Below the pieces are notes generated by a model. That model did not search any database. It saw only the letters and a program-made list of their open reading frames with translations, and was not told the DNA's origin. A stretch of DNA of 64,000 nt from Bilabrum cf. latius (lineage: Eukaryota), in the NCBI GenBank assembly GCA_965178125.1, contig OZ237736.1, forward strand, positions 496,001-560,000, in the 5' to 3' direction. Shown piece after piece: positions 18,022 through 64,000 of the stretch. Each line of letters begins with the position of its first letter. Within the stretch, counting starts at the first letter, position 1. Both the position numbers and the translations under genes were made by a program.

Positions 18022-19202
18022 TCACTCCTGCTTCTTGGCCAGGAAGTCGTACATGGACCCGAAGTCCTTGGTGGCGTACCCGTGCTGAGAGATGAGCTCG
18101 TACATTGCAAGCGCCGTACTGCCCGCCGGCAAGGGCGCGTTCACCGCCTGGGCCGCCTATGCAGCAAGTCCGAGGTCCTTGCGCATGAGAGCAGAGCCGA
18201 ACCCGCCCTGGTACTCCCTCGAGGATGGCACCCCCTCCATGACGCCCGGCACGGGGTTGTACGTGTCTGAGCTCCAGCACCTGCCCGTGGATGTGTTCAC
18301 GATGTCTGCGAGCACCTTTGGGTCCGCGCCCAGCTTGATACCGAGGTTCATTGCCTCACTCACGCCCAGCATGCTGATGCCGAGGATGAGGTTGTTCACG
18401 ATCTTGGCGACCTGGCCCGTGCCGGCAGCGCCGCAGTGCACGGTCTTGGCTCCCATTGCATTCAGCAGCGGCTTGGCCTTTGCTAGGGACTCCGACTCGC
18501 CGCCCACCATGAACGTGAGGGTGCCTGCCTCGGCACCGCCGACCCCTCCGGACACGGGTGCGTCCAGGAGCCCCAGTCCCTTGCTGCTGGCCTCGCCCGC
18601 TAGCTGCTTCGTCACGTTCGGGTCGATCGTGGAGCAATCCACAAGCACCGGCTTCGAGGCGCTGCCTGCTGCCAAGTCGAACACTTCTTCTCGCAGCACG
18701 CGTGCGACGTGCGGAGAAGATGGCAGCATGGTGATGATGGCCTCTGCGCCCTCGACGGCATCCTTCACTGTCGCAGCGCTGGCGCCTCCCGCTTCCACCG
18801 TAGCATTGGCAGCCTCGGGATTGACTGCGGATAGGTGGAGCTTAAATTAATCCTTTGGCCCAGTCACATACAATCGTGGGTCACATGATGCACCCGTGCT
18901 GCCATAGATCTGCTATGAATGTGAGAGTCTTACGGTCAAATGCCTTCACGCTGTGGCCTGCCTTGCACAAATTGACCGACATGTGAGATCCCATGTTACC
19001 TAGACCAATAAAACCAACCTGCGATGCTAGTGGGCTCTAGTTCTGCCGAATGGGGCAGTGATCCCGCGCAGTTGCACTCCAGTTGCTGCTGCCGTCTGCT
19101 CTACCTCACATGGATATTTTTTGATCCAGCAGCCGACATGGTGCGACGTACACTCCCCACAATGCACGACTTGGCTACTCGAGAAGCTCTAGACGCAAGC
19201 AT
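18022..19202 (-). CDS. HIBADH: 3-hydroxyisobutyrate dehydrogenase, mitochondrial; 3 exons, 326 aa
   Basis: complement(join(18022..18824,18934..19018,19110..19202)). Presequence-like MLASRASRVAKSCIVGSVRRTMSA; motifs VGFIGLGNMG, DCSTIDP, DAPVSGGVGGAEAGTLTFMVGG, GQVAKIVNN, STGRCWSSDTYNPVPGV. TAG at 18157 lies in MRKDLGLAA*AA and is followed by the conserved tail GYATKDFGSMYDFL; TGA stop. Confidence 0.95.
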
Positions 19203-30374: not shown

Positions 30375-31198
30375 ATGGCTGGCTCAGCAGAAGATCCCAC
30401 TGTAAGGTGGTGTTTGCGTCTGCTCATTTGGTTCGCTAGGACACTTGTCCTCAGGTTGTCTCTTTTGAGTAGCACATTCCTTGTCTCGCAGCTGGTTCTG
30501 CTGGTAGGTGATCTCCATGTACCGTTCAGGTCATCAAGCATCCCGAAAGCATTTCAGAGAATACTGGTAAGATTTCCACTGCATTCAATGCTGTGCTGGA
30601 CCCTCTCATCGTCGTGCATGGCTTGCTAGCAACACCGGATCCGCCGTCCCCTCTCTTGCAGATGCCTGAGAAGATGCATTATGTTCTGTGCACCGGTAAT
30701 TTGTGTTCTTATGAGCAAATGAATTCACTTCGCACTCTGGCCCCTGATGGGGCCAGGTTCAAAGCAGTGGCTGGGGATTTTGATAGCGAATCGATGGGGC
30801 TGCCTGACCAAGAGGTCTTCACCATTGGAGGATTTAAGTTTGTGATGAACCACGGGCACAGCATAGTTCCGTGGGGTGACCTAGAGGCCCTGTCTATGCT
30901 ACAGCGCAAGCATGGTGCGGATGTGGTGATTAGCGGGCACACGCACGAGAACTCCGTGCACGAGTACGAAGGCAAGCTGTACGTGAATCCAGGCAGCCTC
31001 ACGGGGGCATACTCGTCCATCACCACGGAGCCAACTCCGTCGTTTTGCGTCTTGAGCATCGCTGGAGACAATTTGACGGTGTACATTTACACGCTGGAGG
31101 CGGATGGTACGCAGAAAACGGAGGAAGTGTCCTACAGCAAATCAGCACCAGTGGCTGCTGCAAAGGGGGCTGGTGGGGGTGCCGCCGGTTCAAAATAA
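30375..31198 (+). CDS. VPS29: Retromer subunit VPS29; 3 exons, 212 aa
   Basis: join(30375..30401,30492..30566,30662..31198) with GTAAG...YGCAG introns. Motifs LVLLVGDLHVP, VLCTGNLC, VAGDFD, HGHSIVPWGD, VISGHTH, VNPGSLTGAYS, PSFCVL. Ends in TAA. Confidence 0.96.
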
Positions 31199-42308: not shown

Positions 42309-43582
42309 ATGGATGACCACTACATGGCGCTCTCGGCTATTGTAACAGTTGTGATGTAGCTGCTTTTCTTTGCTATCGCTTTCGCTTTCCAGTTTGACAA
42401 AGTGAGCGTGCTGACGTTGCTGGATCAATGGCGACGTGTTCGGCACCTGTGCAATTTGTAGTTTGGCAGCCCCGGTTCCACTCCAGCTACCGACCGAGGA
42501 CAACACATACATTTACATTATCCGCTAACTTGAAACCCATGCCATGTTGGTTCGCTGGATCCGTGCCGGGCTGAGCTCTGAGAAGCTCAACCATTTGCAG
42601 TATTCATGGTTTCATGGCCGTCTATCTCGCGTCGCAGGTGACAGATTTTGCTGGTTCTACTAATTTCACCCTGCTTGCTTGGATGACCCTGATCTTGAGT
42701 GGGGCGTATCAGACCCGACAAATCATTGTCACGGTAATGCTTACGTTCACCAGAGCATACTTGGCGGGATACCTGCTCTATCGCGTGTTGCAGCGTGGTC
42801 ATGACGCTAGATTCGACCAGATGCGGTCGCAGTTCTTCGCCTTCCTGGGGTTTTGGGTCTTTCAGATGATCTGGGCGTTTGGTGTTTCCGTTCCGGTGAT
42901 CTACTTGAACTCATTGCCGGTTGGCGATGGAGCAAGCGACGAGCCCCCGCTGGAATGGAGAGACTACCTTGGGTACGTTTTGTTTGGAATCGGGTGCATT
43001 TTCGAGATCGCGGGAGATCTCACGAAGAACTCGTTCCGGGCTGACAAGTCTAACAAGGGCAAGGTGTGCGACGTCGGCGTGTGGGGATGGTGCCGCCATC
43101 CGAATTACTTCGGGGAAATCATGATCTGGTGGGGAATCTTTGTGAGCTGCACCGCGGGATTCGAGGCGAATGGCTATGGCGAGGGCTACGGCACCGTTGT
43201 GTCACCGATCCTCACGATGCTCATTCTTCTTTTCCTGAGCGGCGTGCCGTCCGCCGAAGGGTCCTCCTGGGGGAGGTACACGAAGAATCCAGAATATCGC
43301 CCCGTCGTGCTCGAGTACATCGAGAGCGTGCCGCCTGTGGTTCCTTTCCCGTCCCCGGTGTACAGGGTGCTCCCAGGCTGGTGCAAAGCGGCGTTCTGCT
43401 GCGAGTTCCCGATGTACGCCCCCCCGACCGAGAAGGAGGACGAGCAGGCGCGGGCAAAGGACCGGCTCACCAAGCACGGGGGCGGGCATGGTGCTAATGC
43501 AGACAGAGTGGAAGGCGGAAAGGACGAGGGCGAGGTGTCCGTGGTTGCCCCCGCGGCGGCGGGGTCTTCGCCCACTGCGTGA
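42309..43582 (+). CDS. DUF1295 family (steroid 5-alpha-reductase-like) membrane protein; 2 exons, 345 aa
   Basis: join(42309..42401,42638..43582) gives MDDHYMALSAIVTVVM*LLFFAIAFAFQFDK|VTDFAGSTNF with TAG at 42357. Motifs GHDARFD, FWVFQMIW, GVWGWCRHPNYFGEIMIWWGIF, LLFLSGVP. Confidence 0.92.
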
Positions 43583-43725: not shown

Positions 43726-46251
43726 ATGAAACGTGCCTCACGAGGCGGATCCAAACTGCTGAAGTCGTCATTCTTTCTCTGTAGCGGGGCGAGGATGATC
43801 TCTTCACTGATTTTTGTAGGTTTACTGCATTTGATACATGCGTCGGATCTTGACACGGTTAGCGCCAGGTTTGCTACCTCGCTTCTACCCAAGGACAGGT
43901 CGGAAGGAGAGAGCCTAGCAAACGAGGTGAACGGAATACTCGCAAAGTTCATCTCGAGCAACTGCACGTTCGAGGGAATTGACTACAACTCAAAGCGAAG
44001 GGCAAGCTGGCCAGTCATGGCTCATCTTTCTTACACTCAAGCCATGCTGGCAGGCTGGCGCTCGAACCAAACTGGATCGCTTCATAATAACGCAACCGTG
44101 CGAAACGCTGGCGTATGCGCCCTCAATTGGTGGCTTGTCCACAAGCCTGAATGTCCGAATTGGTACGATCAGGTCATCTCGGGCCCCAACAACATTGGCC
44201 AGGCTGTGCTGTACCTCGGGGCCGGCTCCCTGCCGCAGAATCAGACCGACGCAGCTGATGCACTGATGAACAAGGCCGCCGGCCCGTGGACCGGAAGCAA
44301 TCTCCTCTTTGTGCTCCGCGCGCAAATTCTTCGTGGGTTGTTCTTGAAGGACGCAGACCACGTCGGGAAATGCTTCAGCACAGCGTATGGCTCGCTGGTC
44401 CTCTCGAACCAAGGCGATGACGGCATCCAGGCCGATGGGTCCTTCCACCAGCACGGGCCCCAGCTCTTGGCTGCTCACACGTACGGGTCTGAGTTCTCTA
44501 ACCACGTGCTTGAAATGACCATGCTGTCAGCGGACACGCAGTGGCAGCCCGCAGATGGCCCGTTGGCGAACTTTGCGGGTCTGGTGCTGGACGGGCAGCA
44601 GCACATGGTGCGGGCGCAGTCGGACCACTGGGATTGGCAGGCGGCTGGACGGTCCGTCGATACGCCACCTGGCCACCTCACTGGCGTGTCGTCCTCCCTA
44701 GTGCCCTCTTGGATGCGGTCTCTGGCAGACCGGCCCAGGGGTGACGAGTGGGTGGCGTTCGCTGACAGGCTTGATGCGGGCAGCAGCGGGGCGCCTCTTG
44801 TCGCGACAAAGGTGTACTGGGACAGCGACTTCGCCACGCACGCCACGAAGGATTTCTCAATGAGCATTCACATGCACAGCAAGCGCACCATCGGCGGTGC
44901 TTGCGTCAACGAGCAGGGTAAGCTGTCCCAGAGGATGTCTGACGGCACTATGGCTGTCTACCACAAGGGGGATGAGTACGATGGCGTGTGGCCAGTCCTC
45001 GACTACATGCGGCCTCCCGGGACTACAACGGCGATGAACGGAGAGGAACTGGGCTGCGGCAACGCCAAGAAGCCAACGTACTCTGGTTGCACCTTTGTTG
45101 GGGGAGTTGCCTCGAACTCTTCTGCCTTTGGCGCCCTCGCCATGGACCTTCACTACGACAAGGAGATCCACGCTCCCAGATCGTGGATGCTCATCCCGGA
45201 AGGATCCATCATGCTCGGTCAGTCCCTACAAGCCGCTGCTGGTGAAGACTTTCCCCTCGCCACCACGATGGACCAGAGGCTACTCGCCGGGGACGTCTGG
45301 ATCGGGACTCACCTGAGCGGAGGCAAGCCAGTGAAGTTGACAAAGCAGGGAAATTTTTCATACGGCATTCCAGGGGCTACTTCTGACTCCAGTCTACATT
45401 TTGGGGATGGCAGTATCGCTGACAACGACATCCTCCAGTGGGTATGGCACGACGGGACTGGATACGTGCTGCTTGGTGACAGCATGGGTGCACAGCACGA
45501 CACACCCCCGACAAGTGCACAGCTTTTCGTCGGTCCAAAGACTGGGGACTGGTCCAGGGTTGGTGTCGAGTCGGGCAATGTCACTTTGGACATGCTAGAC
45601 CTCGCTATGTATCACGCCAATGATGCAGCACAAGGAAATGGTACGTTTGCCTACGCCGTCCTGCCCACAGTCAGTTCGCCCAGTGACATGCAATCGGCCA
45701 TCGCAAGGTTTACCACCCAGCCGGCTGCCGGTCGGGATGACCAGCCTGCCTCAGCAGATGGCAAGATCAGAGTTATTCGCCCTGTAGTCGACGGGGCGTT
45801 CGCACCGTGGCACGCAGTACTGCATGACAGCGACGCCACGATGCTGGCTGTGATTTGGGATGCGAACGCACCGCCAGCCGCCGCAGGATTGCTGCAAGAC
45901 GGTACATTCACGCCGGTCAGCGCGGGAGCTGGGTGGTCAATTGCCTCTTCTGTCCCCACTACTGTCGTGGTGGATGCATCCGGCCTAGACTCCTCCGGCT
46001 CAGGGACTGTACTGCTCTCTGCTGCGTCTCCCGGCATCGACGGTGGCAAGATATCACTGTACGTGGACCGTGCGCTCAGTGCATGCACAGTTGCAGGCAC
46101 CAGCAGCGTATCTTGCGTGCCGTACTCGCCTCCTGCCTCAAGCCGTACAGCCTCGCTTAGTGAGGCTTCGACCTGGACGCAGATTACGTTCGAGTTGCCT
46201 GGCGGCGACCGTATGGTGGGCGCGCCCGTGAGTGTTCGGGCAACGAGCTGA
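43726..46251 (+). CDS. Polysaccharide lyase family 8 (chondroitin AC/hyaluronate/xanthan lyase-like), secreted
   Basis: Uninterrupted 841-codon ORF; probable start ATG 43795 (MISSLIFVGLLHLIHA signal). PL8 motifs NWYDQVI, WTGSNL, DGIQADGSFHQHGPQL..HTYG, AGRSV, DYMRPPGTT, FVGGV, RSWM, TTMDQR, WVWHDGTGY, FAYAVLP. Confidence 0.9.
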   Translation: MKRASRGGSKLLKSSFFLCSGARMISSLIFVGLLHLIHASDLDTVSARFATSLLPKDRSEGESLANEVNGILAKFISSNCTFEGIDYNSKRRASWPVMAHLSYTQAMLAGWRSNQTGSLHNNATVRNAGVCALNWWLVHKPECPNWYDQVISGPNNIGQAVLYLGAGSLPQNQTDAADALMNKAAGPWTGSNLLFVLRAQILRGLFLKDADHVGKCFSTAYGSLVLSNQGDDGIQADGSFHQHGPQLLAAHTYGSEFSNHVLEMTMLSADTQWQPADGPLANFAGLVLDGQQHMVRAQSDHWDWQAAGRSVDTPPGHLTGVSSSLVPSWMRSLADRPRGDEWVAFADRLDAGSSGAPLVATKVYWDSDFATHATKDFSMSIHMHSKRTIGGACVNEQGKLSQRMSDGTMAVYHKGDEYDGVWPVLDYMRPPGTTTAMNGEELGCGNAKKPTYSGCTFVGGVASNSSAFGALAMDLHYDKEIHAPRSWMLIPEGSIMLGQSLQAAAGEDFPLATTMDQRLLAGDVWIGTHLSGGKPVKLTKQGNFSYGIPGATSDSSLHFGDGSIADNDILQWVWHDGTGYVLLGDSMGAQHDTPPTSAQLFVGPKTGDWSRVGVESGNVTLDMLDLAMYHANDAAQGNGTFAYAVLPTVSSPSDMQSAIARFTTQPAAGRDDQPASADGKIRVIRPVVDGAFAPWHAVLHDSDATMLAVIWDANAPPAAAGLLQDGTFTPVSAGAGWSIASSVPTTVVVDASGLDSSGSGTVLLSAASPGIDGGKISLYVDRALSACTVAGTSSVSCVPYSPPASSRTASLSEASTWTQITFELPGGDRMVGAPVSVRATS

Positions 46252-46574: not shown

Positions 46575-49500
46575 TCACGTGCACTTGCAGGCCGCGCGCA
46601 GCAGTCCCACGACGCACGTAATCCATACAACGCCAACAATTTGAAGCCGCTACCAAGCTAGCAGCTCTTGTGGTACGCTTTGCAGCGAGCCTTGCTGGTT
46701 TGAGCACGAATCCCAGGCGCAGATTCCTAGTGTGCACAAGGCCGCCCACAGCAGCGAAGCAGCAACTAGGACAGACTTTGCTGCACAGAAGGTCGCTGTT
46801 GAGACTGAGGTTGCGTCGTGTATGGCCTACAGAATAGCAGCATCTTGTGTAGTTTCTCTATCCTTAAGAGCTTCAGCGGTTGACCCGGTAGCTACGCCAT
46901 CAGAATGCTGGGCCCCTTCCCCAACCACCTAGGCATCCCTGACATCTATCTCGCTTGGGTAGGATGACAAAGTGTTCGGCGAAGATTCTTGCAGTAGGTT
47001 CTGCTCTTGTTGCAAGCTGGGGCTTGACCCAAGCCGGGAGCTTAAGCACCCTGCGCCGCCATGCCAAACAGCAACGAGGAGCTGGGACTTCCATGTCACG
47101 ACGGTTAACAACCGCAGAAGCGCTGCGAGAGCAGGAGAACGTCTAGCGAGAGCAACCACTCGATTTCGGAGCCGTCTTCCCTGATTCACAGTCAAATCTG
47201 TACCCGCAGGTTCAGAAATGGAACCGATGCTAGTATCAATACCAGCCGTGGTATGCAGTCTCCAATCGGTGTCTATCTATCCCCCCTCAGGACTAGCCCG
47301 ATGCGGGTCTGCGTGCCTGTCAAAGACGCGCCACTCTATATCGACTTGATTTAGCGTCCTGTTTCCAGCATCAGGACGGTGACCATCCGCATTGCCCCGC
47401 TAACGACTCCATATTGACTCGCTGCCCTCGACGGCCACTTGGTTTCTCGTGTACCTCCGTAGCCGCGGTTGAGACTGCTATCGCCGCTCAGTCAATGCAC
47501 CGAATACGTCAGCATCGCAACAGCTTGCAGCTACAAATCTGCTCACAAGTAGGACACTTTGGCCAGACAGCTGCAACACCGCTGGCGCTTGCAGACTGAC
47601 TTGCAAAAGTACGACACCAAGAAGCCATTGCTGCATAGTGAGCACTAGCTCTGAGATGACCACCCATTTGACTGAATCAAGCTTTGCCTACAAAGATTGT
47701 CTGCACACTACACCCTTTATGGCCAGCCAGGAAGCACAGGCAATATACATGGTACAAAGGAGCGCCTGCAGCACAAGCATTGGGCTCGAGAACCACTGCT
47801 GTGCGGACAGGCGACACTCCTCGCCTAGCATTGGTAAGCCAAATGTTCCAAGGCACGGAAGCTCAATTGCATGAAATACACTATTTACATTCACTGCGAG
47901 CAGCCAAATACCACCTTCTGCACCGGGTCTGTCTCCAGACAGAACAGCTGCTAGTCGCGTTGCTACAGCTCCGGCCGACATCGCACGCAAGGACGTGGTT
48001 TCAGCCAACCCGATCAAATATTCGGGATTCGAAGTGCCGATGCGGACAGAAAATGAAATCTGCACCACTAACTGAGACATGTTCAATGGATCAGCATTGT
48101 CAGGCGGTTGCGGCGGCAGCAGCTCGTAGTCTGTTGCTGCTACCTCCCACCTTCGAAACGTGGAGCCACTACCTTCCCCTGCAAGGTCCATCAGGTCATT
48201 CAACACGTCATCTTCGAGCCATTTCATCTGTGCAGTCGATGGCTCTGGGTAATCGAGGCCTGGAGCTTGACCAATGTGGTCTTCCATCCATGATTGTGCG
48301 GCTGGCCATCTGTTCCGGTCGAAGAGAAGGTCAAACGTGAGTCTAGCTTGCGAAGCCGAGAGACTCTGTGCCCATACCGAAGAGTAAATATCATTCCATG
48401 TTCCCATTGACGGCCGCAGCACCTATTTGCACGTCATCTTGGGGGATATGCTCGCAAAAGCACTATCATTTGCGTACACTAGTGCCGACCTGCTGGACAG
48501 GTTGGGAAACAGCAGAGACCCCCGTGCAGGAACATACTGCAATCTGCTTGCATCATACGGAAACATTGCCGGTGACAAAGCGGGATATCCCAGCCAGTAA
48601 GAGTACCAGATGCGATGCACGCTCGCTGCCAACGACCACCCGCCCCGCGAGCCCCGACCAACGGCTGCCTCCACACCGGGATCCACTGGTACATCGTCAG
48701 GGTCGTCGCACACGGCCATCACTGCCACACGGCCCTGGAAGTAACCGTAGACCTGCGTCCTGTAGGGCAGCCATCGACCGCCTGACACAGCGGGCAGCGT
48801 GACATTGGGGGGCGGCGGGTATGCTCTGGCGTTGACGATGCCTCTGTAGACGGCGTACGGGCCAATGACAGCACCGCTGTCAGCTGGCGTCGCGTCCTCG
48901 TTGGGTATACCGAAAGATCTTGCACCCCCAATTATTGCTCTTCCATTGCTTGCTACTACAGATACGGTTGCATTGTATCGTCCCGATGAAGCCGGAATAT
49001 ATTGGCCGACTGCAGAGTACGGCTCTGCCTCGCCTCCGAATAGGGTAGCAACCCCATTCTGTGCCGCAGTCATGTCCGCTGGCATCAAACCGCTACGGTA
49101 CCGGCTGAAGTCCACATCGTACGAGATCGCGCATCCCACGCGGACACTCGGGAATGGCCCTCGGACAGCATCGCTCTCAGCGTACTGCTTCAGCAAGGCC
49201 TGCATGCGAGGATCCTGTCTGTCGGTGATGCTGCCCGTGTCGGGGGTGCAGGAGCGGGAACCCACGCACGATGCACGATCAAGTAAGACTCTTCGGCCTC
49301 GATGTACATAGTGCCTTCTCCCACCGGCCCTCACCGGCATGTAGCAAAATACATCCTGCATTGGACTACCCACACCATCTCCATCAGTGGTTGCGTTGAA
49401 TGGGTCTAGCACGGACGGTGGCACATCAACCACTAGAGCAATGACATGCCCACGATTCACACGCCAAGCGTAGTACTCGGACTCGCCCACGATCTTGACA

Positions 49501-50881
49501 TCGTTGTCGTACGGCAGCACAGCCACAGAGCCGGGTGGATACACAGTGGTTAGAGACTGGTGCCACTTGGCCGTCTCCTGAGCTGCGGTATCGCCGCTCT
49601 GCCTTCGTGTCGGGTCAATCAACAACTTTGCGCACACAGCAGTGGCTCGCACTGTTATATTATGCAATGTGTAAACTGGGTCCTAGGGGTATTCAATGAA
49701 GGGTATCGAGTCAATTGACGAGTAGTTTGTGATTGGCTTACTTGGGCACGCTCTTGGCGACGATTGGCCGCCAGCTGGGACCCCCCTTTTGACATCCAAC
49801 CTGCCCTTTTTGGCTGGAAACCCCGTCCCCTGGATGGGCCACACGGTGGTCTGCAGACAGATGTCCCTGGGATCGACAGGCTGGTCCATTGGGGAGCAGG
49901 CCGGGTCATACCACTCCACAGGGCAATCCACAGCTACAACGCTTGTGCACACAGTCGACCTGGATATATCTGAGCCTTGTATTGCCACCTGGATGGTCGT
50001 TGGATGCAGAGCAAGCGGCGAATAAGCATCGTGAGGGGGGTGTTCCCCGGTTCTCGAGTAGACCATGTGCGCCCGCTGCACTACCTTACCCCCCATGTCC
50101 CCACGTGTCGTGAGGAACCATGCCTCGACTGCATACGGCTCTGCGACCCGATCGGGGGGAAGAATACAACTTTGCTCGCTCAACGTGGCCGCACCCGTAG
50201 TGGGAGGGCCGAGTTGAGTCGAGCTTGCGGCAGGGTAGCGCACTGTGGACCCGATGGACGGGGTGACAAGCCTGCCAGTGCCGTTGATCGGCTGCAAACT
50301 GCTGGTGGAGCTGGTTCCTTTGGCCACGGGAAGCATCGATGCACCGCGCGATATGCTGCCCGAGTACGTCATGTTCGACCAACGAATACCCGGCCCAGCG
50401 TTCCAAGTCCAATGCTGTGAAGGGTTTGGTGAATTCGGGTGCCCAGTTGGAGCGGCCCAAGGATGCCCGAAGAGATGACACGACTGTCTCGAACGGATGA
50501 CAGTTAACGCTGACTCGCTTGCACTCAGTATTCTTGATGTTCGATTGGTCACGCCAGCGATGCCTAGGCTTGCTGGTCCTTGAGCAACGTACCAAGAGCC
50601 TGCAATTAAAGAAATGGAATTAGTGGGTCAGGGGTAGAAAATGATAGCAAAGCGAAGTGTAAGCGCATACGCACTTCAGATTACTGACAATTACACAACG
50701 ATAAATTGTATCGATCCTTTCCTGGCGTTGATATTACGGCAGCGGGTTCTTGCGTTGATCCGAAAGGGAATGCAACCTGTGGAATCGCGGCTTCCATCCA
50801 GTCAAGCACGCCTGTAGCTCCTACTGCTGCTTCGTCGTAGGAAAACAGCGCAACAATGAATGCAAGAACTGGATATTGCAT
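46575..50881 (-). CDS. Receptor-like multi-pass membrane protein, paralogue A; ~1405 aa
   Basis: complement(join(46575..50599,50689..50881)). Signal peptide MQYPVLAFIVALF; phase-1 intron after Cys-Asn shared by all four paralogues; 9 TAGs; TGA stop. Homologous over its full length to copies B-D. Confidence 0.8.
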
Positions 50882-51104
50882 AGGCACACTGTGACATACA
50901 GGTTGACAAAATCGTTGTTTTGTCGTTCTGGTTCCGAGTTCCGTCCGTGGATTCTTCAATCAGATCACCTATACGTCCAATAATTGACCTAAGCTGATCA
51001 GGAGCTTCGCCAGACATTGACTTACATATATAGTCTGTGTTGGTTTTGGATCGCGTCCCCCCAACTACTCTAAATTGCATCGCGACAATCGAAGTCTTGC
51101 CGCA

Positions 51105-54100
51105 ATGAAAATTCAGCAGCACATTCTTGTCGCCATGCACGTTCTTGCCATACTCTGTAGATGGTCCAATGCATCAGCATTGTCCCAGAGCAATCAAATG
51201 GTGCTGCAGTGCGGAGATGCACTGCATAGTGACAGCATCGCAATGGCAATTCATTCGGCTGATCCGCAGACTGCCGTCATGTTCGGAACAGAAATGGGCT
51301 GTTCAAGGAAGAGTGTACGAGGTCTTCCACTCGCAGTAACTGCTTGTAACGGTATGAATTGTGACCTTACTGCGGGCCAATAGCGAGCGGCCGATCTCCT
51401 TGAGTCTATCACCAGACTTGTCTTCGAGGTCTACTGTGTTTCTCCGTGTACCGCAGGTTCTTGGTTTGTGTCTCAAGGATCAATGGAACTAGGAATAAGC
51501 GGTACCTCAAGCCGAACGGCCAGGGTCCTGAACTCGTCCACCGCGACTTGGAGGAGCTTGGGCGAGCATCTCGAGCGGTGCCGACTGGTGGGCCATCCAT
51601 GGATCGGAGTGCCTGGCGACCCCATCAGCCCACTTCCAACGTAGCATTGGACGTGGCCGGTCGGCCCGGCGATCCATCCGCCAGAGTATGGCACCCATGG
51701 TGTGAATTCAAGTAGTAACCTGCGCATGGACACGCTTGGAACCTTCGTTCGCTTTCCTGGTGCCAGCACTCCCTAGCTGCCCCCGCCATCGGTCGAGGTG
51801 ATACCACAGTCACAGCAGGACTTGATTCTGCCTCCCGATCGTGTTGCTGAGCCATTTACTGTAGAGGCATGGTTCATGTCAATTTGGAGCCGGTTCGGGG
51901 GAAACACATTTGCACGTTTCCAGAGAGCTTACTCGGGCACTGCTGGGCTGGCTCCGATCAACCTGTACTCGTTCTTGGATACCAGCAGCTACACGATGCG
52001 GTCTGGCATCCTAGACTCAACTCACAGAGATTTCACGTACTGCACTCCCATCAAGGTTGTGGACTGTCCCATGGAGTGGTATGACCCGGCCTGCTCCCCC
52101 ATGGACCAGCCTGTCGATCCCAGGGACCTCTGTCTGCAGACCACCGTGTGGCCTATCCAGGGGACGGGGTTTCCAGCTCAATCACGAGCATAGGTAGGAA
52201 GGGTGGGCAAGGGCGCCAAAAGGGAATGTCCAGTCAAATCAAGTTCGAACTACTCCTCTATCGACAGGGTTCCAGCGGTGATGAGCGACTAGCACAATCC
52301 GAAACTGTACAAGGAGCAGAACATTACTGTACGCACGGGAAGCGCCTGCATCGGTTCGAGAATTGTGACGACACTACGGCCGAGCGGAATATCGGCAGCT
52401 TAGTAGACTCCGAAATGGCACCAGACATTGTCCACGGTATACCCGCCCGGCTCCGTGGCAGTCCTACCGTACGATGCAGACGTGCGAGTGGTAGGAGAGC
52501 GGGCAGACTATGCATGGAGAGTCAACCGAGGTCATGTGATCGGTCTTATCATTGATACTCCTCCGTCTTATCTGGACCTTGGCAGTCGATCCTGGGGCTC
52601 TCCAATGGACGTTGGGTCTGCAGACGTTGGCAATCGCCGAACCAATGCAACGATTGACAGCCCTAAACTTGACGTGTCCTGTGCGTTTCCCACCGACTCT
52701 GGTGAAATATTGGACCAAGTCATAAGAGCAAGGCGGGTCTTGCTGGATGATGTATCTTGCGTGGGTTCCCGCTCCTGTACCCCCGACACGGGCAGCATCA
52801 CCGACAGGCAGGATCCTCGCATGCAGGCCTTGCTGAAGCAGTACGCCGAGAGCGATGCTGTCCGAGGGCCATTCCCGAGTGTTCGCGTGGGATGTGCGAT
52901 CTCGTACGATGTGGACTTCAGCCGGTACCGTAGCGGTCTTGTTCCAGCAGATATGATTGCTGGATAGAATGGTTTGGCAACGATGTTAGGGGGGAAACAA
53001 CAGCCATACCAAATAGACAATGAGGATTACGCGCCAGCGGTAGCCGGTAGATTCAATCAGTCAGGAGCTTTGGCTGTCACTGCCGGGTTTGATGCGCGCG
53101 GTGTAAATACTGATGACCAAAGACGAGCCAATCAGATACCCAGTCAACAGGCGACATCCGCTGACCTAGGTCTAGCCATTGGCCCGTACGCCGTCTACAG
53201 AGGCATCGTCAACGCCAGAGCATACCCGCCGCCCCCCAATGCCACGCTGCCCGCTGTGTCGGGCGGTCGATGGCTGCCCTACAGGACGCAGGTCTACGGT
53301 TACTTCCAGGGCCGTGTGGCAGTGATGGCCGTGTGCGACAATCCTGACGATGTGCCCGTGGATCCCGGTGTGGAGGCCGCCGTGGGTCGGGGCTAGCGGG
53401 GCGGGTGGTCGTTGGCAGCGAGCGTGCATCGCATCTGGTACTCTTACTGGCTGGGATACCCAGCGTTTAACCCCGTCGCTTCTTTGTACCAAACTGCTAG
53501 GCTATCATCCGTTCCAGCGAAAGCCAATGTACGATTGGATCAGCAGTATAATCAACTTCCCACGTATTCGGGACCCACGCCGCCCAATGGATCAATGCCA
53601 CAGATGGTGTGCAAGCACGACCGGTTTCCCGGTTGGTCGCATGGGATTTCTATGTACAGAACTGCGTGGGCAAGGCGGTTGAGGGCTAGTAGAGCAATTA
53701 TTGACTTCCACCTGTTGTTTGACAGAAACAGGTTGCCAGCTGCACAAGATCGGTCGCCCTGGCTTGGGACTCAGGCTCCTGGATTGAGCTACCCTTCACC
53801 CAGCAGTGCTTAGCTTGAGTGGTTTAAAGGTGACGTGCTTGACGATCTTAAAGACTTGGCTGGAGAAGGGGACGGCGATTTGATTCGGTCGTGGCGCATT
53901 GATATCGTTTCAATTGATACGCTTGCGGCACGGCCTCCGCAACCGAACGACACGCTGCTGTACCCGCAACTGTGGATGAATGTCTCACTTCGAGCGCACA
54001 TCGAGCAATCGCAGTGGCTTGCGGATACCCAAGTTCCACAATTGCACATGTTACGAAGCATGTCGGCCGGTTCGGTAGGTATGCGATTAAGGGATGTCTT

Positions 54101-55574
54101 GTCTGGTGCGAGACCCGGAGCATTGAACGGAATTTGGCTGGGTACAACAGCGAGGACGAGCGTACACCTGTCCGTAACTCTCCCTTGCCTGGCGTCAAAC
54201 TCAAGGGCGGCTACGTACGATCGAGATTGCCTACAAAGTGCAAGCACCTGGGCACAATCATGGACAACATTGATCTCACTGTTTGTATCGTTGCTCTGGG
54301 TTGCTTGTGGGGCGTCACTTTCGGTACATGTGCTTGGATCCACGTCATCAGATATCAGAGATGGTGCGTATTGGCACACGCTTGCATGGCACATAGTCCT
54401 GTCATGTATTTCTAGGTTGCTTCTTACAGCCGGATTGATTGTGTGTATGTTCGCGTCAAAGCTGAGCTACCCTGCAGCGTCTCTCATCGCATGCGCTGCT
54501 CTTGGAATAGCTGCACGTGCTATTCTAATGGGGTGCTTCAACATTGACATCGGAGGTCAGTCCCTGCAGCTTGCTGGTAAGCGATAGGGTAACCTCTCGT
54601 CTATTCTTGCAGTGCGGGAAGAAGGCAGTGTGCAGGCTGAGGGTACCGCTCACGGCATCGGTGCCGCGTACTCAAACGACCCTCGCGCGGGTGCGATCCA
54701 AACCAGGTCCCAAGCGTGGCGAATCATTCCGGAGAGCCACGCTACCCAGGCTCAGGATACAAATAATTGCGCTTGGGAAGCAAATGAAGCTAGAGTTGCC
54801 GATATCTTTTACAGAGATGAACCCAGCCATGGTGGCTACGAACCGCACCAACAGCACCTGGCTGACCACTCGCATATGCATAGCAACGTGAGTGCAGGGC
54901 CTTCCGGTCATACGAATAGTGTTTTAGACATGAAAATAGATCCACATGTGCCGATAGAAGCGCCACAACCTGACCATGGATCTCGCGTGCAAACGCCTAG
55001 ATCTAGTTTACAACAAAGAGTTCGTTGGGCTGCACGAACCTCACCGGCAATGTTTGCCGCCGTGAGGCTCTTCACGCTGCTACACTGGGATCTGTAGGCG
55101 GCTTATGTTCTCTGGGTTTAGGCTGTCACATGTAATGTTGGCCATTCATCGTGGTGCGCCTGCTTGCAAGCCGATCCAACAGGCCAAGCATCGCACAAGC
55201 CGTCCCCTCGATTGGATCTTCTTTTGGAGATGCGCAACGGGGCATTCCCCAACAGTTCGTCTGCCAAGGTTGGACTCGCTGCATTTACAATAATTCGCGT
55301 GCATGGAATCTGGTTTCGGTTTGTGGAGGATCTCGTAGTGCTATGCACGCTGACCTGGGTCGGACTCTGCACGACTGGCGTTTGTGAGTGGGACGCGTGC
55401 TCCGCCGGTGGAGAGCTGGGGGTTCTGCTATCCGTTCCACAGGAGCTTTTGGCATGGCAACGCTTTCAAACCCTGGGAATTACGTGGACAATGAGCATAA
55501 TGGCAGCGATATGTTCATTGGTTCAGTTGATCGCTGTGGATGTCTGGATCCGATCGCCGCAAGAGCAACGCTGA
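51105..55574 (+). CDS. Receptor-like multi-pass membrane protein, paralogue B; ~1454 aa
   Basis: join(51105..51351,51457..55574). 12 TAGs join track ORFs 51798, 52428, 52974, 53412, 53835, 54612 and 55164; TGA stop. Hydrophobic helices near 54260-54540 and 55330-55540. Confidence 0.8.
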
Positions 55575-55751
55575 AGATTGATACAATATCTGCCTTATGT
55601 ACTGAAATAGCCCGTTGTTGCAAGCAATTGATAAATAAAAACCATAAAACTGGTGTCGTCGCCATTAAATCGTAACAGAATTCCTATCTTGATGCAGTTG
55701 GCCAATGCACTGATCATACGTCAGTAGCTAAGCACCTCAACGCCAGTGTTG

Positions 55752-58700
55752 TCAGTTGGGCGGACCGCTACATGCTTGTCGCTGGCAGGCAATCATCCAT
55801 TCGCACTTCGCGTGAAGCATCACGGATATAAGTACAGAACAAGCTGACGCACTCCACGCCAACCCAACCTCTTGCACTCGCTACCAAGCCACCAGTTCCT
55901 GAGGCACGCTCTCGATTGACCCGATGTCCTGCCAGCTGCAGGCCGACCACTTGCACACGCCTGCAGTACACAATGCCGACCACACTAAGACAGCTACCAG
56001 CACAAGATCCTCTGCTACCCGCATGTACCAGCCATACAAGTCGACACGTTGCTCCAGTAGCCTCAGAACATTTCTGTTCTAGTCGGAAAGACGTTGTGCC
56101 AACTTGTGCACCTGGTCGATTTCCTCGGGAGCGGCAATCTGCTCCGATCCCTTGCTGGCCTAACGCGGCTCCTCAAATTCAATCATATCAACCTGTACCT
56201 CCCTCGAGCCTCCGGGGGACTCAGGCACATTGTGAATCTGAATGCTATCCTAGCCTTCGACCAAAAAAGCAGGCTTTGCTTGCATCTAAGCATCGTCTGG
56301 TACGATCTCCAGGAAAGGCCGATGGCCTTCAGCTGTATCTTCGCTGCTGCAAAAATTTCTAGAAACAGCCAGCAACACCTGATTCTCCCAGTCAAGTACC
56401 GCCAGCACGCGCAGGAACGAATAGTACACGCGCCAAGCCGTCGAAAGCAAGCTGATTCGCCTATGCAGCCGCACGTCCGTTGCAATCTTAGCAATAATGC
56501 TGGAATGCTGTGAATGCTCCTCCTCATCCACACGATTACAAGCAGCATCGGAAGGCATCCCATCACGGGTATCAGCTTTGTACCGTCGTATGCGAGGAGG
56601 CACTGCAATGGACTCGTCCTACTTTCGATAGATTAGTCCTGGCACGTGCACTCGGGACTTGCTGTGACTCGGCAGCCCACGCCTTATAACGTTCTTCTCA
56701 AACGGATTGTGGTCCATTTGACGGCCATGGATGCTATCGAGATCGACATCACAGCATCCGATCAGAATCGCACGCAGTACCAATCCCAGGCTCAGAGCTA
56801 TGATCCACACGTCACCCGGCCCGTCCAGCCGCGCTCGAACCAGCTGCACTGCAAGCACCCAGTGCAGCACCATCCGGCAGACCCGACACGCGCTCGCCGA
56901 GATGATCTCCAGGTCAATCGAAGCCTGCAGTCTGCACACAGCATACCAACATGACACCGCGTACACCATGCTGCAGGCTATCATCGCCGTCACTACAAGC
57001 AGCTGTGCCCACGTGGCGCCCCGATGCATCCATATCGCTCCGACGGTATTGCAGTCTTCGGCGTATGCCTTCACCGACGAACGCAGACAGGGGAGCTGGA
57101 TGCGATAGCCGACACTACCCATGTCCACTGCCAGCAGCCACGTGCCTGCGAGAGCTCCCCCGCGATTCCCGCGCAGCACTGGTACCACCCGATCCACCAC
57201 CGACCCAGCCGACATGGACCGCTAGAATGCCAGGCCTGCCACCTGCGTCCGAGCGGCCCCATCTGGCTCGCCCACATGCACCTGCACTGACAGGCGCATC
57301 CACAGCTGGGACACATTCAGTGAATCACCCGATGGGGCAGGCTCAGCGGGCAACGCATCTACTTGCAACACCTCCACCCGCCAGGACCGCACCTGGTCCA
57401 TGTCGCCCTCCCCAGCCATATCCTGCAGATCGTCCAGCAAGTCATCCTCCAGCCAGCGCAGCTGCTTGTTCGACGGATGGGGATGGTCTACACCGGGCGC
57501 CTGACCGATATATTGGCCCATCCACGATTGTGCAGCGGGCCACCGGTTCCGGTCAAACGCCAGGTCAAACCACAGGGAAGCGCGGCTGGCGCCCAGGTGG
57601 CGGGCCCAGTCAGACCGATACATGCTGCGGGCAGATCCAAGGCCAGGCGATTCTTCTGATCGGCATTCCATGCGAGGCACCAAGCTATCAACCGTGCTGT
57701 TCCCATCATACGACACCGGAAGACGGGTACTACCGCCGTTCCAACGCAGCTGCACACCAGCTGGCACTGCGGCCAGCCGGCGCTGTACCGATGCCGACAC
57801 ATTCTGGACTAGACCGGGATATCCCAGCCAGTAAGAGTACCAGATGCGATGCACGCTCGCTGCCAACGACCACCCACCCCGCGAGCCCCGACCCATGGCG
57901 GCCTCCACACCGGGATCCACGGGCACATCGTCAGGATTGTCGCACACGGCCATCACTGCCACACGGCCCTGGAAGTAACCGTAGACCTGCGTCCTGTAGG
58001 GCAGCCATCGACCGCCCGACACAGCGGGCAGCGTGACATTGGGGGGCGGCGGGTATGCTCTGGCGTTGACGATGCCTCTGTAGACGGCGTACGGGCCAAT
58101 GGCTGTTCCCTGATTTGCCTACGTTACGACTGGATCAGTATTTTCTAGAGGAGCATTTATCACCCGTTCCATTCTATGTGTACCAGAATTGTGAGACCCA
58201 TGAGAACTGATCTCGCTGACAGTACTGGATCTCTTAGCCCCAAGTTCTATCGTGTCAGCGGCAGCAGTCCAGTTGCCAGGAGGAACGTAGCGCCCCCGAC
58301 GTGCCACCCGTATGCCTACTTTACGGACATCGTATGGGCGATCATAACCCCCGAACATTGTTGACATCCCGTTCTGCGATGCTGGCATGTCCATCGGTAC
58401 CAGCCCGCTACGGTATCGGCCGAAGTCCACATCGTACGAGATCGCGCATCCCACGCGGACACTCGGGAATGGCCCTCGGACAGCGTCGCTCTCAGCGTAC
58501 TTCTTCAGCAAGGCCTGCATGCGAGGATCCTGTCTGTCGGTGATGTTGCCCGTGTCGGGGGTGCAGGAGCGGGAACCCACGCAAGACGCATCGTCCAGCA
58601 GGACAGCACGCGTGTAAGCTGCCTGAGGTAACCTTCTTTGATCATTGCAAAATATATCTTTCTTCGGGCTAGCAGCAGCACTGCCATTACCATCCAGTGG

Positions 58701-60074
58701 TGTCACATTCCACGGATACAGCTCCGATGCCGGCACATCCAACACAAACGCAAGCACGTGTCCCCGATTCACGCGCCAAGCGTAGTCCTCGGCCTCGCCC
58801 ACGATCTTCACATCCTCTCCATACGGCAGCACAGCCACAGAGCCAGGTGGGTATACCGTGGTGAGAGACTGGTGCCACTTGGCCGTCTGCTGCGCCGCGC
58901 TGTTGCCGTCCCGCCGCCGAGTCAGCAGCACTCGAGAGTCTACGCAGGCCGATGTGATGCGCACCGCCACCCCCGTGGAGTTATACTCATCAGGAATCGG
59001 GAGGGGGCCGCCAGCCGGGGCCAGCTTGTCGATGGGCTGCCTCGATGTGTACTTCACGGGGCACTGCACTGCAGATGACTGGTTCTGTCGAGAGGAATAG
59101 GGAACCCTAGCACGAGCTGGGTATCCCGTCCCCTGGATTGGCCACACGGTGGTCTGCAGGCAGATGTCCCTGGGATCGACAGGCTGGTCCATGGGGGAGC
59201 AGGCCGGGTCATACCACTCCACAGGGCATACCACAATGGTGCTGCTCGCACATATTCTGAACGGTATGTCATTCATTCCGACTGCGGCTATTCGCAGGGA
59301 GCGTGCTTGCTTCAGCGGTGTGTAAGTGATAGTGTTGCTGTACCCTTGCGTGCCACTGTACGTCCTAGGCTATCGTGTAACAACACTACCTCCAGCTGAA
59401 GCGCGTATCTGTGTAAACCAAGCCTCCACCGTGAATGGCTCAGCCACCCGATCAGGAGGCAAGACTAGGTCCTGGCGCTCCGGTGGGACCAACTCGACAG
59501 AGGGAGGGGGCAACTAGAACGTGCTTGCTCCTGGCATGGCGATATGGGTTCCAAGTGCAGGCACTATGTATACGCACAGCTCCGGCTCATCCGCATCCAT
59601 TTTTAAAGATGGAACGCCAGGCCCTGCTTTCCACGACCAGTGCTGGTATATTGTGGCCCTTCGGGAGCTTTCAGTGGTTCCAAACCCAGACCAAGGAGTT
59701 TGTTGCATCAAACATCGCTCATAATCCTAATCCAGCGAGAACATCGTAGCCATTTGTGCAGATAGTACACGGCTTGTCCGAGTTGATTGGTTCGTGATTC
59801 CAAGGTGTATCGCTCCAAGCCCGGCGAACCATGAAGCTGCGACGGAGTATCGGTCCATAACGAGCTACAAAATAAAAAGAAGACATTATCACCTGCTGGA
59901 CCAAGGCAGTGACTCACCATTGCACCGTTGTGGAAGCAGCATTGAATTGGCTGCCCTTCGGCGTGAGAGACAACTGCCAAAACTGAATGCAGTGCTCGGT
60001 GAATTGCGATCAATAGCATCATGAAGAGGATGCGACACGACCAATGTTGCAAGAATTGCAGCGAAGCTAATCAT
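55752..60074 (-). CDS. Receptor-like multi-pass membrane protein, paralogue C; ~1413 aa
   Basis: complement(join(55752..59836,59918..60074)). Signal MISFAAILATLVVS; 81-nt GTGAGT...CGCAG intron; 11 TAGs; TGA stop. Confidence 0.8.
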
Positions 60075-63000
60075 GTCAGACTGCGACGGACATTATTCGG
60101 GATGCGGAGAGATTATAAGGAGGAGAAGCAATAGACCCACAGGGCAACTTGTTGAACGATTTAGATTGCATTCTTGAAATGCATGTATTATTTCTGGTTG
60201 CGTTAGTGCAAGACGCATTTTCGCATACTCTGTTTCATAGTATTGACTCGTACTAGCCAAGCACCTCATTCCAGTTTGGCGCTTGCATTGGCAGCAACCA
60301 GGACAAGCGACTGCATCTACACCAGCTGAGGTCGCAACAGTGTAATTGTAAGATTGGCAGCAAGCATGTTGCTTGACTTAGAAATTGTACGCAATATAAT
60401 CCAACTGTGCCCCGTTCTTTGGTCGCAGCTACATGGGTTGTGTCAGATGGGGCTTCGAAGCTTGGCATCGCTGAATCGAATCGAACTGTTAGGATTCTGT
60501 CCGCAAGCTCAGCGTTTCGCATGAATACTTCAAGCGATCCATCTCGCTGTGATATGATCTCGCCTCCATGGAACGGTTGGGGATTGACCCCGAGCTCACA
60601 GCATCCGCCCGTGTTCAAACGGTGGCGATGGCTGACTGGCCCCGGAGTTCCGTCCCCAAGCCACGCATCACCATCCGCGATCAGCTGTAGATCAGCTGGA
60701 GAGTCGTTTGTGCCATCAATAGGAGTCCACGTTGCTATGCCAGGAGCAAGCACGTTCTAGCTGCCCCCTCCCTCTGTCGAGTTGGTCCCACCAGAGCGCC
60801 AGGACCTAGTGTTGCCTCCTGATCGGGTGGCTGAGCCATTCACGGTGGAGGCTTGGTTTACGCAGATACGAAACAATCTGCCTGCATCTATCATTGGACG
60901 ACAGCCTAGGACGTACAGCGGTACGCAAGGGTACAGCAACACTATCACATACACACCGCTGTAGGACACAACCTCGTTGCAAGTGCATCGTGTGTTCATT
61001 GGACTAAATCCATTCAGACTATGTGCGAGCAGCACCATTGTGGTATGCCCTGTGGAGTGGTATGACCCGGCCTGCTCCCCCATGGACCAGCCTGTCGATC
61101 CCAGGGACCTCTGTCTGCAGACCACCGTGTGGCCCATCCAGGGGACGGGATACCCAGCTCGTGCTCGGGTTCCCTATTCCTCTCGACAGAACCAGTCATC
61201 TGCAGTGCAGTGCCCCGTGAAGTACACATCGAGGCAGCCCATCGACAAGCTGGCCCCGGCTGGCGGCCCCCTCCCGCTTCCTGATGAGTACGACACCACG
61301 GGGGTGGCGGTGCGCATCACGTCGGCCTGCGTGGACTCTCGAGTGCTGCTGACTCGGCGGCGGGACGGCAACAGCGCGGCGCAGCAGACGGCCAAGTGGC
61401 ACCAGTCTCTCACCACGGTATATCCACCCGGCTCTGTGGCTGTGCTGCCGTATGGTGAGGATGTAGAGATCGTGGGCGAGGCTAAGGACTACGCTTGGCG
61501 CGTGAATCGAGGACACGTGCTTGCGTTTGTGTTGGATGTGCCGGCATCGGAGCTGTATCCGTGGAATGTGACATCACTGGATGGCAATGGCAGTGCTGCT
61601 GCTAGTCCGAAGAAAGACATATTTTGCAATGATCAAAGAAGGTTACCTCAGGCAGCTTACACGCATGCTGTCCTGCTGGACGATGCGTCTTGCGTGGGTT
61701 CCCGCTCCTGCACCCCCGACACGGGCAGCATCACTGACAGGCAGGATCCTCGCATGCAGGCCTTGCTGAAGCAGTACGCTGAGAGCGATGCTGTCCGAGG
61801 GCCATTCCCGAGTGTTCGCGTGGGATGCGCGATCTCGTATGATGTGGACTTCAGCCGGTACCGTAGCGGGCTGATACCGATGGACATGCCAGCATCGCAG
61901 AACGGGATGTCGACAATGTTCGGGGGCAAGGACGCGCCATACACCACTCGCAGCGGCGTTGTGGTGGCGGACCGAGGGCGGTACGAGCCTCCAGCGAACA
62001 ATTCAGCGCTGAGCGTGCAGGCATCAGGTGCGACCCAGAATGGTGGAGCACATGAAGTCTCGGTCAGCACGGGCAGTTTGAATGATGGTCCTGTGCCGGC
62101 AACGTTCGGTGCAATTGCAGGCCCGTACGCCGTCTACAGAGGCATCGTCAACGCCAGAGCATACCCGCCGCCCCCCAATGCCACGCTGCCCGCTGTGTCA
62201 GGCGGTCGATGGCTGCCCTACAGGACGCAGGTCTACGGTTACTTCCAGGGCCGTGTGGCAGTGATGGCCGTGTGCGACAATCCTGACGATGTGCCCGTGG
62301 ATCCCGGTGTGGAGGCCGCCATGGGTCGGGGCTCGCAGGGCGGGTGGTCGTTGGCAGCGAGCGTGCATCGCATCTGGTACTCTTACTGGCTGGGATATCC
62401 TGGTCTAGTCTAGAATGTGTCGGCATTGGTACAGCGTCGGCTGGCTCCAGTGTCAGCTGGTGTGCAGCTGCGTTGGAACGGCGGTAGTACCCGTCTTCCG
62501 GTGTCGTATGATGGGAACAGCACAGTTGATAGCTTGGTGCCTCGCATGGAATGCCGATCGGAAGAATCGCCTGGCCTTGGATCTGCCCGCAGCATGTATC
62601 GATCTGACTGGGCCCGCCACCTGGGCGCCAGCCGCGCTTCCCTGTGGTTTGACCTGGCGTTTGACCGGAACCGGTGGCCCGCTGCACAATCGTGGATGGG
62701 CGAGCACATCGGCCAGGCGCCCGGTGTAGACCATCCCCATCCGTCGAACAAGCAGCTGCGCTGGCTGGAGGATGACTTGCTGGACGATCTGCAGGATATG
62801 GCTGGGGAGGGCGACATGGACCAGGTGCGGTCCTGGCGGGTGGAGGTGTTGCAAGTAGATGCGTTGCCCGCTGAGCCTGCCCCATCGGGTGATTCACTGA
62901 ATGTGTCCCAGCTGTGGATGCGCCTGTCAGTGCAGGTGCATGTGGGCGAGCCAGATGGGGCCGCTCGGACGCAGGTGGCAGGCATGGCATTCTAGCGGTC

Positions 63001-63466
63001 CATGTCGGCTGGGTCGGTGGTGGATCGGGTGGTACCAGTGCTGCGCGGGAATCGCGGGGGAGCTCTCGCAGGCACGTGGCTGCTGGCAGTGGACATGGGT
63101 AGTGTCGGCTATCGCATCCAGCTCCCCTGTCTGCGTTCGTCGGTGGAGGCATACGCCGAAGACTGCAATACCGTCGGGGCGATGTGGATGCATCGGGGCG
63201 CCACGTGGGCACAGCTGCTTGCAGTGACGGCGATGATAGCCTGCAGCATGGTGTACGCGGTGTCATGTTGGTATGCTGTGTGCAGACTGCAGGCTTCGAT
63301 TGACCTGGAGATCATCTCGGCGAGCGCGTGTCGGGTCTGCCGGATGGTGCTGCACTGGGTGCTTGCGGCGCAGCTGGTTCGAGCGCGGCTGGACGGGCCG
63401 GGTGACGTGTGGATCATAGCTCTGAGCCTGGGATTGGTATTGCGCGCGATCCTGATCGGATGCTGT
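56751..63466. repeat. Large inverted repeat: arms ~56751-59540 and ~60734-63466 with a ~1.2-kb spacer
   Basis: Paralogues C and D are near-identical reverse complements over these arms except for three short unrelated cassettes. The spacer holds their divergent 5' ends. Confidence 0.9.
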
Positions 63467-64000
63467 AGAATGGACATTGCCAGTCGGTATGTGTTGGAAT
63501 CAGGTGAACAGCAGTAGCACGGCAGAGCGGGTGCAGTCCATGATGGAAATCAGTACCGGCGCAGGGATGCAGTCGTTCCGGAACCTGGGCTAGCAATCAC
63601 TAGCAAGCATGGAATGCTTTAGGCTGATACACGATCATGGAATGCGGATAGTGGAACAGGTCGGGCAGGAGTCATCAAATCCTTGGTTCTTGTTGAGACG
63701 ACGGTTGGCATAGCAGGGTGCAGGAATCCCAGCGCTGAATCGAAGTGGCCCCGCAATAGCGCTCACAGTAGATTGCGTCGCATTGTGTCGACATTGTCGC
63801 TGGCGTACCCCGTGCGATTGGCATTTATCAGAGTGATGGCCGTGCTGGATTGGGACACCTAGCTGCTGCTAGCATCGAGTTGCATCCAGGGAGGCTCGGG
63901 GTTGCGGAACACTGACAGTCGCGAGGCCCCCCTCATTGAAGAAGATGCGTCGGACCATGATAGAATAGTTGGGTAGATGTTTTCAGACTCCGAGTCGGAC
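60179..64000 (+). CDS. Receptor-like multi-pass membrane protein, paralogue D (3' end runs off the window)
   Basis: join(60179..60347,60429..>64000). Signal MHVLFLVALVQDAFS; 81-nt GTAAGA...CGCAG intron; 9 TAGs and no TAA/TGA up to the window end. Confidence 0.8.

Follow-up and report, generated by a model that had tools for sequence, protein, structure and literature searches.

Does UAG terminate translation or specify an amino acid, and if the latter, which one? The question is raised by a 64,000-nucleotide (nt) stretch of DNA from Bilabrum cf. latius (contig OZ237736.1 of assembly GCA_965178125.1, positions 496,001-560,000, forward strand), hereafter the window. Read with the standard code (table 11), the part of the window between 46.5 and 64 kb holds only open reading frames (ORFs) of 150-480 codons; with TAG read through, the same region yields four long ORFs that encode the related proteins A, B, C, and D (Table 1). 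Comparisons within this family suggest strongly that UAG is read as sense, with the same meaning as CAG and CAA, and that the residue it specifies is, very probably, glutamine (Gln).

Residues opposite TAG in a family of paralogues

The initial annotation of this region had proposed that UAG specifies Gln, citing nine sites at which TAG alternates with CAG or CAA among the four paralogues and three sites at which it faces another residue. We aligned A-D as codons using MAFFT and mapped the alignment columns back to the codons, with TAG masked as X so that the aligner was unable to favor Gln, and all nine alternating sites and all three exceptions were found where that annotation had placed them. 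At columns 472-473 the tandem TAG codons of B (52401/52404) face CAG CAG in both C and D (61382/61385 in the latter) and CAG GAG in A. TAG at 62411 in D and at 59370 in C are matched by CAG at 57804 in C and at 60902 in D, respectively, and TAG at 52965 in B by CAG at 61898 in D and also at 58374 and 49059. TAG at 53811-53813 (+) in B (column 967) faces CAG in the three other paralogues; that at 51642 is paired with CAG in two of them (A and C) and with AAA in D; and those at 63860 in D and 55095 in B, which share a site, again face CAG in A and C. At column 258 TAG is present in B (51774), C (59514), and D (60758) and faces CAA in A (50214), and two further relatives, E and G (see below), have CAG there. 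Finally, TAG at 46650-46652 (-) in A and at 55881 in C faces CAA at 55458 in B. These last two TAG codons lie approximately 25-40 codons before the ends of A and C and are followed by conserved sequence on to a TGA stop, so that TAG at 46650 must be read through.

Tabulation of all residues aligned with TAG shows that these columns are clearly enriched for Gln, which accounts for 26 of 98 residues (6.35-fold over background). Where the flanking sequences are at least 40% identical the count is 21/44 (11.2-fold), and where they are at least 60% identical it is 10/26; among other residues with counts greater than two, none exceeds 1.8-fold. Thirty-five TAG columns have a partner that is not TAG, 13 of these have well conserved flanks, and CAG or CAA stands opposite TAG in nine of the 13. 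When all codons are ranked by the share of Gln among their partners, TAG (0.302, 26/86) falls between CAG (0.517, 201/389) and CAA (0.253, 47/186), and the next codon, AAA, reaches 0.109.

Additional members of the family give a similar picture. A scan of metagenome contigs revealed two loci with three extra copies (E, F, and G), none of which contains an in-frame TAA or TGA, and a HMMER pass over 1.8 billion representatives recovered 71 relatives (P0010-P0080), all of which are fragments of no more than 546 residues. With these fragments aligned, Gln constitutes 52 of the 215 residues at TAG columns (6.2-fold) and the next residue is Pro (27, 1.5-fold). At the best TAG columns the Gln share among the fragments is 6/6 at column 258, 8/8 at column 967, 11/16 at column 660, and 9/16 at column 850. 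Several fragments start just after or stop just before a TAG column (three at column 258 and five at column 967), as expected from gene calls made under the standard code, and the public calls thus seem to be truncated.

We also asked which residue best accounts for TAG by replacing it with each of the 20 amino acids on a fixed LG+G4 tree and summing site likelihoods over the TAG columns. For the four paralogues (42 TAG codons in 37 columns) Gln is the maximum-likelihood residue, in support of the earlier assignment, with deficits in log-likelihood (lnL) units of 16.6 for Glu, 18.7 for Ala, 19.4 for Lys, 19.8 for Ser, 28.0 for Leu, 77.4 for Tyr, and 125.0 for Trp. With all seven sequences (62 TAG codons in 50 columns) Gln is again best, and the deficits rise to 41.7 lnL for Glu, 44.0 for both Ala and Lys, 47.4 for Ser, and 61.7 for Leu. 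In a control in which 42 occurrences of each of ten ordinary codons were masked in turn, the true residue was recovered for nine.

The rate at which CAG and TAG replace one another provides a further measure, for which we compared classes of first-position C/T differences in the C-D pair (sites differing) and in the clade ((C,G),(D,E)) (columns changed). CAG/TAG changes are seen at 3/36 sites in the pair and 7/34 columns in the clade, matching the synonymous Leu class CTR/TTR (5/58 and 8/49; Fisher p = 1.0 and 0.77), whereas the non-synonymous C/T class changes at 3/261 and 4/203 (p = 0.025 and 0.00015 relative to CAG/TAG), about one tenth of the CAG/TAG rate. Mutational proximity would also bring TGG opposite TAG, as it too is one transition away, but none of the 145 TGG codons faces TAG anywhere in A-D. 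CAA is two changes away from TAG and yet stands opposite it at six columns, several of them conserved, and the signal therefore reflects equivalence of meaning beyond mutational proximity.

Several observations nonetheless weigh against the assignment to Gln, and some of them would fit a reading in which TAG stands for some other residue, such as Glu, Lys, Ser, or Leu, and pairs with CAG simply because a single C/T transition separates the two codons. The three exceptions noted above are real: TAG at 53394-53396 (+) in B lies inside a fully conserved block and faces Ser (TCG) in A, C, and D, with Ser in 7/17 fragments and Gln in none; TAG at 60962 faces AAG (Lys); and TAG at 62993-62995 (+) in D and at 57222 in C faces Leu (TTG/TTA), the 13 fragments there having Leu in five and Gln in four. 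In copy G a TAG occupies an otherwise invariant Trp position. This copy and copy E, which terminates early at TAA TAA, could have been damaged or could reflect errors in metagenome assembly. When the columns of the seven-sequence set are scored singly, Gln ranks first in only 14 of the 48 that are informative, and the one codon missed by the likelihood control was CAA, for which Ala was ahead by 0.1 lnL and Gln ranked fifth; the test thus has low power for codons in variable regions, and many of the TAG codons are situated in variable stretches of the family. All of the strong evidence for Gln comes from one gene family, whose members share ancestry, so that the counts are not independent. Outside the family, Gln is favored at one of six TAG sites. 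Three TAG codons in a GH31 gene face Ser, Asp, and Ser, then Arg, Arg, and Lys, and lastly Gln, Val, and Gln in the three relatives with coverage there; the TAG in a HIBADH gene faces Asp, Asp, Glu, Glu, and Asp in five PDB alignments; and two TAG codons of a MEK-like kinase on a related contig (L002) face Ala in MEK1. None of these non-family sites is at a conserved Gln, however, and they therefore neither confirm nor refute it. Nor was a tRNA gene found in the window, on L002, or on L001 (the contig carrying copy G), and there was no Rfam match. Nuclear codes in which UAG is Leu or Ser do exist, according to the open text of PMC11687900. Against a residue other than Gln stand the lnL deficits of Glu, Ser, and Leu, the absence of TGG opposite TAG, the presence of CAA at several conserved columns, and a CAG/TAG rate that is synonymous rather than non-synonymous, and we consider such a residue most unlikely.

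A different kind of explanation is that TAG does not encode a residue in functional genes at all, either because the family consists of dead repeats with nonsense TAGs generated by C-to-T changes, similar to repeat-induced point mutation, or because U-to-C editing restores CAG in the RNA. A change from CAG to TAG is what C-to-T decay of duplicated DNA would produce, and A-D form a tandem family. But decay would also be predicted to convert 78 CAA codons to TAA and 145 TGG codons to TAG or TGA, and no such changes are seen; the reading frames of A-D are unbroken by frameshifts or by in-frame TAA or TGA; the ratio of non-synonymous to synonymous substitution (dN/dS) is 0.25-0.53; and the single-copy genes for CDT1, an LRR protein, and an EML-like protein carry 11-15 TAGs each. 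Judged by their sequences, A-D are intact genes under purifying selection and are not decaying. As for editing, all sequencing-run contigs placed on the window retain T at the TAG sites that they cover, including a spliced contig from run X5 (TAG 59514 and 59727), although no run is recorded as RNA, the run types were guessed, and contigs drop rare variants, which lessens the force of this check. Decay and editing together strike us as having next to no likelihood.

Use of TAG, TAA, and TGA across the window

The presence of TAG codons is not confined to the four paralogues. The window is 58% G+C (GC) and contains 18 ORFs with a total of 17,982 codons, in which there are 122 in-frame TAG, 450 CAG, and 223 CAA codons and neither TAA nor TGA. 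TAG is present in 15 of the 18 ORFs and makes up approximately 15% of the putative Gln codons. Among the 35,962 off-frame triplets there are 351 TAG, 147 TAA, and 679 TGA, and the density of TAG per 1000 codons is 6.8 in frame and 9.8 off frame. Eukaryotic domains are recognizable in a number of the ORFs, including CDT1, an EML-type propeller, GH31 together with PAN, HIBADH, and a VPS29-like phosphoesterase. Where UAG is decoded as pyrrolysine it is rare, restricted to a small set of genes such as those for methylamine methyltransferases, and read by a Pyl tRNA; decoding of this kind was rejected, since TAG occurs in nearly all genes of this eukaryote-type DNA and aligns with Gln.

Fourteen of the ORFs terminate at TGA and three at TAA (7077 on the minus strand, 15457, and the end of ORF 30593-31198). 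If TAA were used relative to TAG as CAA is relative to CAG, some 60 would be expected in frame, and none is observed. The absence of in-frame TAA, together with its use to end three ORFs, shows that UAG alone has changed, and a code in which UAR (UAA and UAG) specifies Gln (the NCBI table 6 pattern) was rejected on these grounds. We also considered TGA as the sole stop codon, but under this reading none of the genes extends across an internal TAA, and the additional TAA triplets lie just past presumed stops or within the intron of C. A code in which TAG specifies Gln while TAA and TGA terminate (the NCBI table 15 pattern) is thus highly probable, its two stop codons being read from one 64-kb window.

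It is conceivable that UAG is ambiguous, serving internally as Gln but as a stop for some genes, or being decoded by near-cognate tRNAs as more than one residue. Context-dependent stop/sense codes have been described in other eukaryotes, and gene ends at TAG would not be visible from ORFs alone. However, the base that follows TAG is distributed as that following CAG (p = 0.58), indicating that the 122 internal TAGs have no special readthrough context; TAG accounts for 15% of the Gln codons; conserved sequence continues beyond the late TAG codons of A and C; and 17 ORFs end at TGA or TAA, with D cut by the end of the window. An ambiguous UAG therefore seems very unlikely, and the simple reading of UAG as Gln is preferred.

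The nuclear code of the eukaryote represented by the window very probably reads UAG as Gln and keeps UAA and UGA as stops, with TAG acting as a minor third Gln codon in nearly all genes. At conserved Gln positions CAG, CAA, and TAG drift into one another, which is why the paralogues display the reassignment so clearly. By analogy with other lineages that read UAG as Gln, UAG would be decoded by a tRNA-Gln whose anticodon is CUA, and eRF1 would be restricted to UAA and UGA; this pairing of tRNA-Gln(CUA) and a restricted eRF1 is the one put forward for Iotanema in the open text of PMC5304391. No eRF1 gene is present within the 64-kb window.

Comparison with known genetic codes

Code changes that reassign UAG alone to Gln are rare but have precedents, and the comparisons that follow hold as far as the open text of the cited papers describes these codes. 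The closest counterpart is the fornicate Iotanema spirale (Panek et al. 2017, PMC5304391), a non-ciliate eukaryote in which UAG alone is reassigned to Gln and UAA and UGA are retained as terminators. That case comes from the transcriptome of an anaerobic metamonad whose main stop is UAA (PMC5304391), whereas the window is 58% GC, has TGA as its main stop (14/17 ORFs), and encodes a HIBADH-type enzyme. Two phyllopharyngean ciliate lineages and the ciliate Protocruzia tuzeti (McGowan et al. 2024, PMC11687900) share the same codon and residue and also retain UAA as a stop; the window differs in being 64 kb of multi-gene, GC-rich DNA with spliceosomal introns, and we see nothing that ties it to ciliates.

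Codes in which UAR specifies Gln are more widespread, being found in many ciliates, hexamitin diplomonads (Hexamita), some Ulvophyceae, Streblomastix, and Amoeboaphelidium protococcarum (PMC11687900, PMC5304391, PMC6299283). They resemble the window in assigning a stop codon to Gln, presumably via a suppressor tRNA-Gln, but TAA is a sense codon in these organisms, and in the window it is missing from all of the codons counted and ends three ORFs. The Amoeboaphelidium genomes are 40.5% and 39.9% GC (Table 1 of PMC10608142), and thus differ from the window in composition (approximately 40% compared with 58%) as well as in the behavior of TAA. On both counts we rejected an aphelid origin of the window, which had been considered in view of the Amoeboaphelidium code and of small shares in runs labelled algae metagenome and protist metagenome. 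Genetic code 15 of crAss-like and other phages likewise has TAG as Gln and TAA and TGA as stops (PMC9523058); these are phage genomes with suppressor tRNAs acting late in infection (PMC9523058), whereas the window is cellular, eukaryote-type DNA with introns and with CDT1, VPS29-like, and EML-like genes. The rhizarian exLh and the green alga Scotinosphaera, in which UAG is Leu and Ser, respectively (PMC5304391, PMC11687900), also have nuclear codes that decouple UAG from UAA, but they differ in the residue, and Leu and Ser are rejected in the window by the seven-sequence likelihoods.

In the open-text literature that was searched, we found no GC-rich, non-ciliate eukaryote other than Iotanema in which UAG alone is assigned to Gln. 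The window could perhaps represent a so far unrecognized GC-rich, non-ciliate lineage that independently uncoupled UAG from UAA and assigned UAG to Gln, a suggestion that we make tentatively and with limited confidence. Nuclear codes that separate UAG from UAA are rare; the same sources describe them from a single fornicate, a single rhizarian, one genus of green algae, and a small number of ciliate lineages, and each such case tests the mechanistic coupling of the two codons through eRF1 and wobble-reading tRNAs. If the suggestion is correct, this would be a genome-scale addition to very few non-ciliate cases, with its tRNA and eRF1 changes open to study, and public gene calls for the lineage and its relatives would be systematically truncated. 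Annotation under the standard code cuts most of the proteins into pieces, as the fragmentary relatives show, and the full proteins are recoverable only by translation with TAG as Gln and TAA and TGA as stops.

Gene structures and neighboring features

The coordinates of the four paralogues, the three extra copies, and other features mentioned here are listed in Table 1.

Table 1. Paralogues, additional copies, and other features of the window and of related contig L001.
Feature	Coordinates	Strand	Length	In-frame TAG	Comments
Paralogue A ORF	46575-50552	-	1325 codons	9	TGA stop
Paralogue B ORF	51075-55574	+	1499 codons	13	TGA stop
Paralogue C, raw ORF	55752-59870	-		12	
Paralogue C, exon 2	55752-59836	-		11 (coding)	TGA stop
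Paralogue C, intron	59837-59917	-	81 nt		GTGAGT...CAG (GT..AG)
Paralogue C, exon 1	59918-60074	-			ATG at 60074-60072; encodes a hydrophobic N-terminus; spliced in frame to exon 2
Paralogue D ORF	60407-64000	+	1198 codons	8	3' end open (window end)
Copy E			1030 codons	7	
Copy F			589 codons	8	
Copy G	L001 1-753	-	251 codons	5	
Ubiquitin gene	L001 4278-4689				TAG at residue 28
LRR protein	832-3306	+		15	
HIBADH ORF	18022-18798	-			
VPS29-like (Metallophos_2) ORF	30593-31198	+			TAA stop
DUF1295 protein	42614-43582	+		0	
PL8 polysaccharide lyase	43726-46251	+	841 aa	0	

Paralogues A-D are 45-47% identical in pairwise comparisons, apart from the C-D pair at 78%, and all four combine a large conserved region rich in Cys with hydrophobic segments and a tail that varies. 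The start of B is likely an ATG 10 codons into the ORF, followed by a hydrophobic, signal-like stretch, and C acquires a similar N-terminus once it is spliced. A contig from run X5 connects 59836 directly to 59918, skipping the intron of C; the TAG at 59865 is within this intron and is therefore noncoding, which corrects the count of coding TAGs in C from the 12 of the raw ORF to 11. A 5' exon may lie upstream of A, and D as well as A probably has upstream exons. None of the four matches a Pfam family, no other ORF of the window is related to them, and for the core of C no relative of near length was found, only fragments; an AlphaFold model of this core, made with a 30-row alignment, has a mean predicted local distance difference test score of 49.9. 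We read A-D as a putative lineage-specific family of membrane or secreted proteins. Within D, the segment 62373-63439 is represented by a run X1 contig that is approximately four times deeper than its neighbors and has 12 differences, including a T to C change at 62411 that converts TAG to CAG. In this deep contig an additional paralogue, or an allele, has probably been collapsed.

The genes of the window vary in their use of TAG. In the LRR protein TAG constitutes 15 of 40 putative Gln codons (38%), compared with the window mean of 15%. The PL8 polysaccharide lyase has 32 CAG or CAA codons and no TAG (P = 0.005 given a 15% share of TAG elsewhere, uncorrected for 18 genes), and the DUF1295 protein also lacks TAG. 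Recent acquisition or codon selection could account for these two TAG-free genes. A bacterial donor for the PL8 lyase was considered and rejected, as the sole relative found, which is prokaryotic, is only 26% identical.

The ubiquitin gene on L001 has an intron of approximately 269 nt after its sixth codon, and its TAG falls at a residue that we take to be variable. The Pfam matches of the HIBADH and VPS29-like ORFs begin at profile positions 40 and 27, respectively; the missing profile starts indicate that first exons of both genes lie upstream, across introns. HIBADH-type enzymes are mitochondrial in model organisms. Among homologues of the HIBADH ORF the best match is 87% identical, and the named ones, at 56-59% identity, are scattered among Amoebozoa, Labyrinthulomycetes, Ichthyosporea, and a tunicate.

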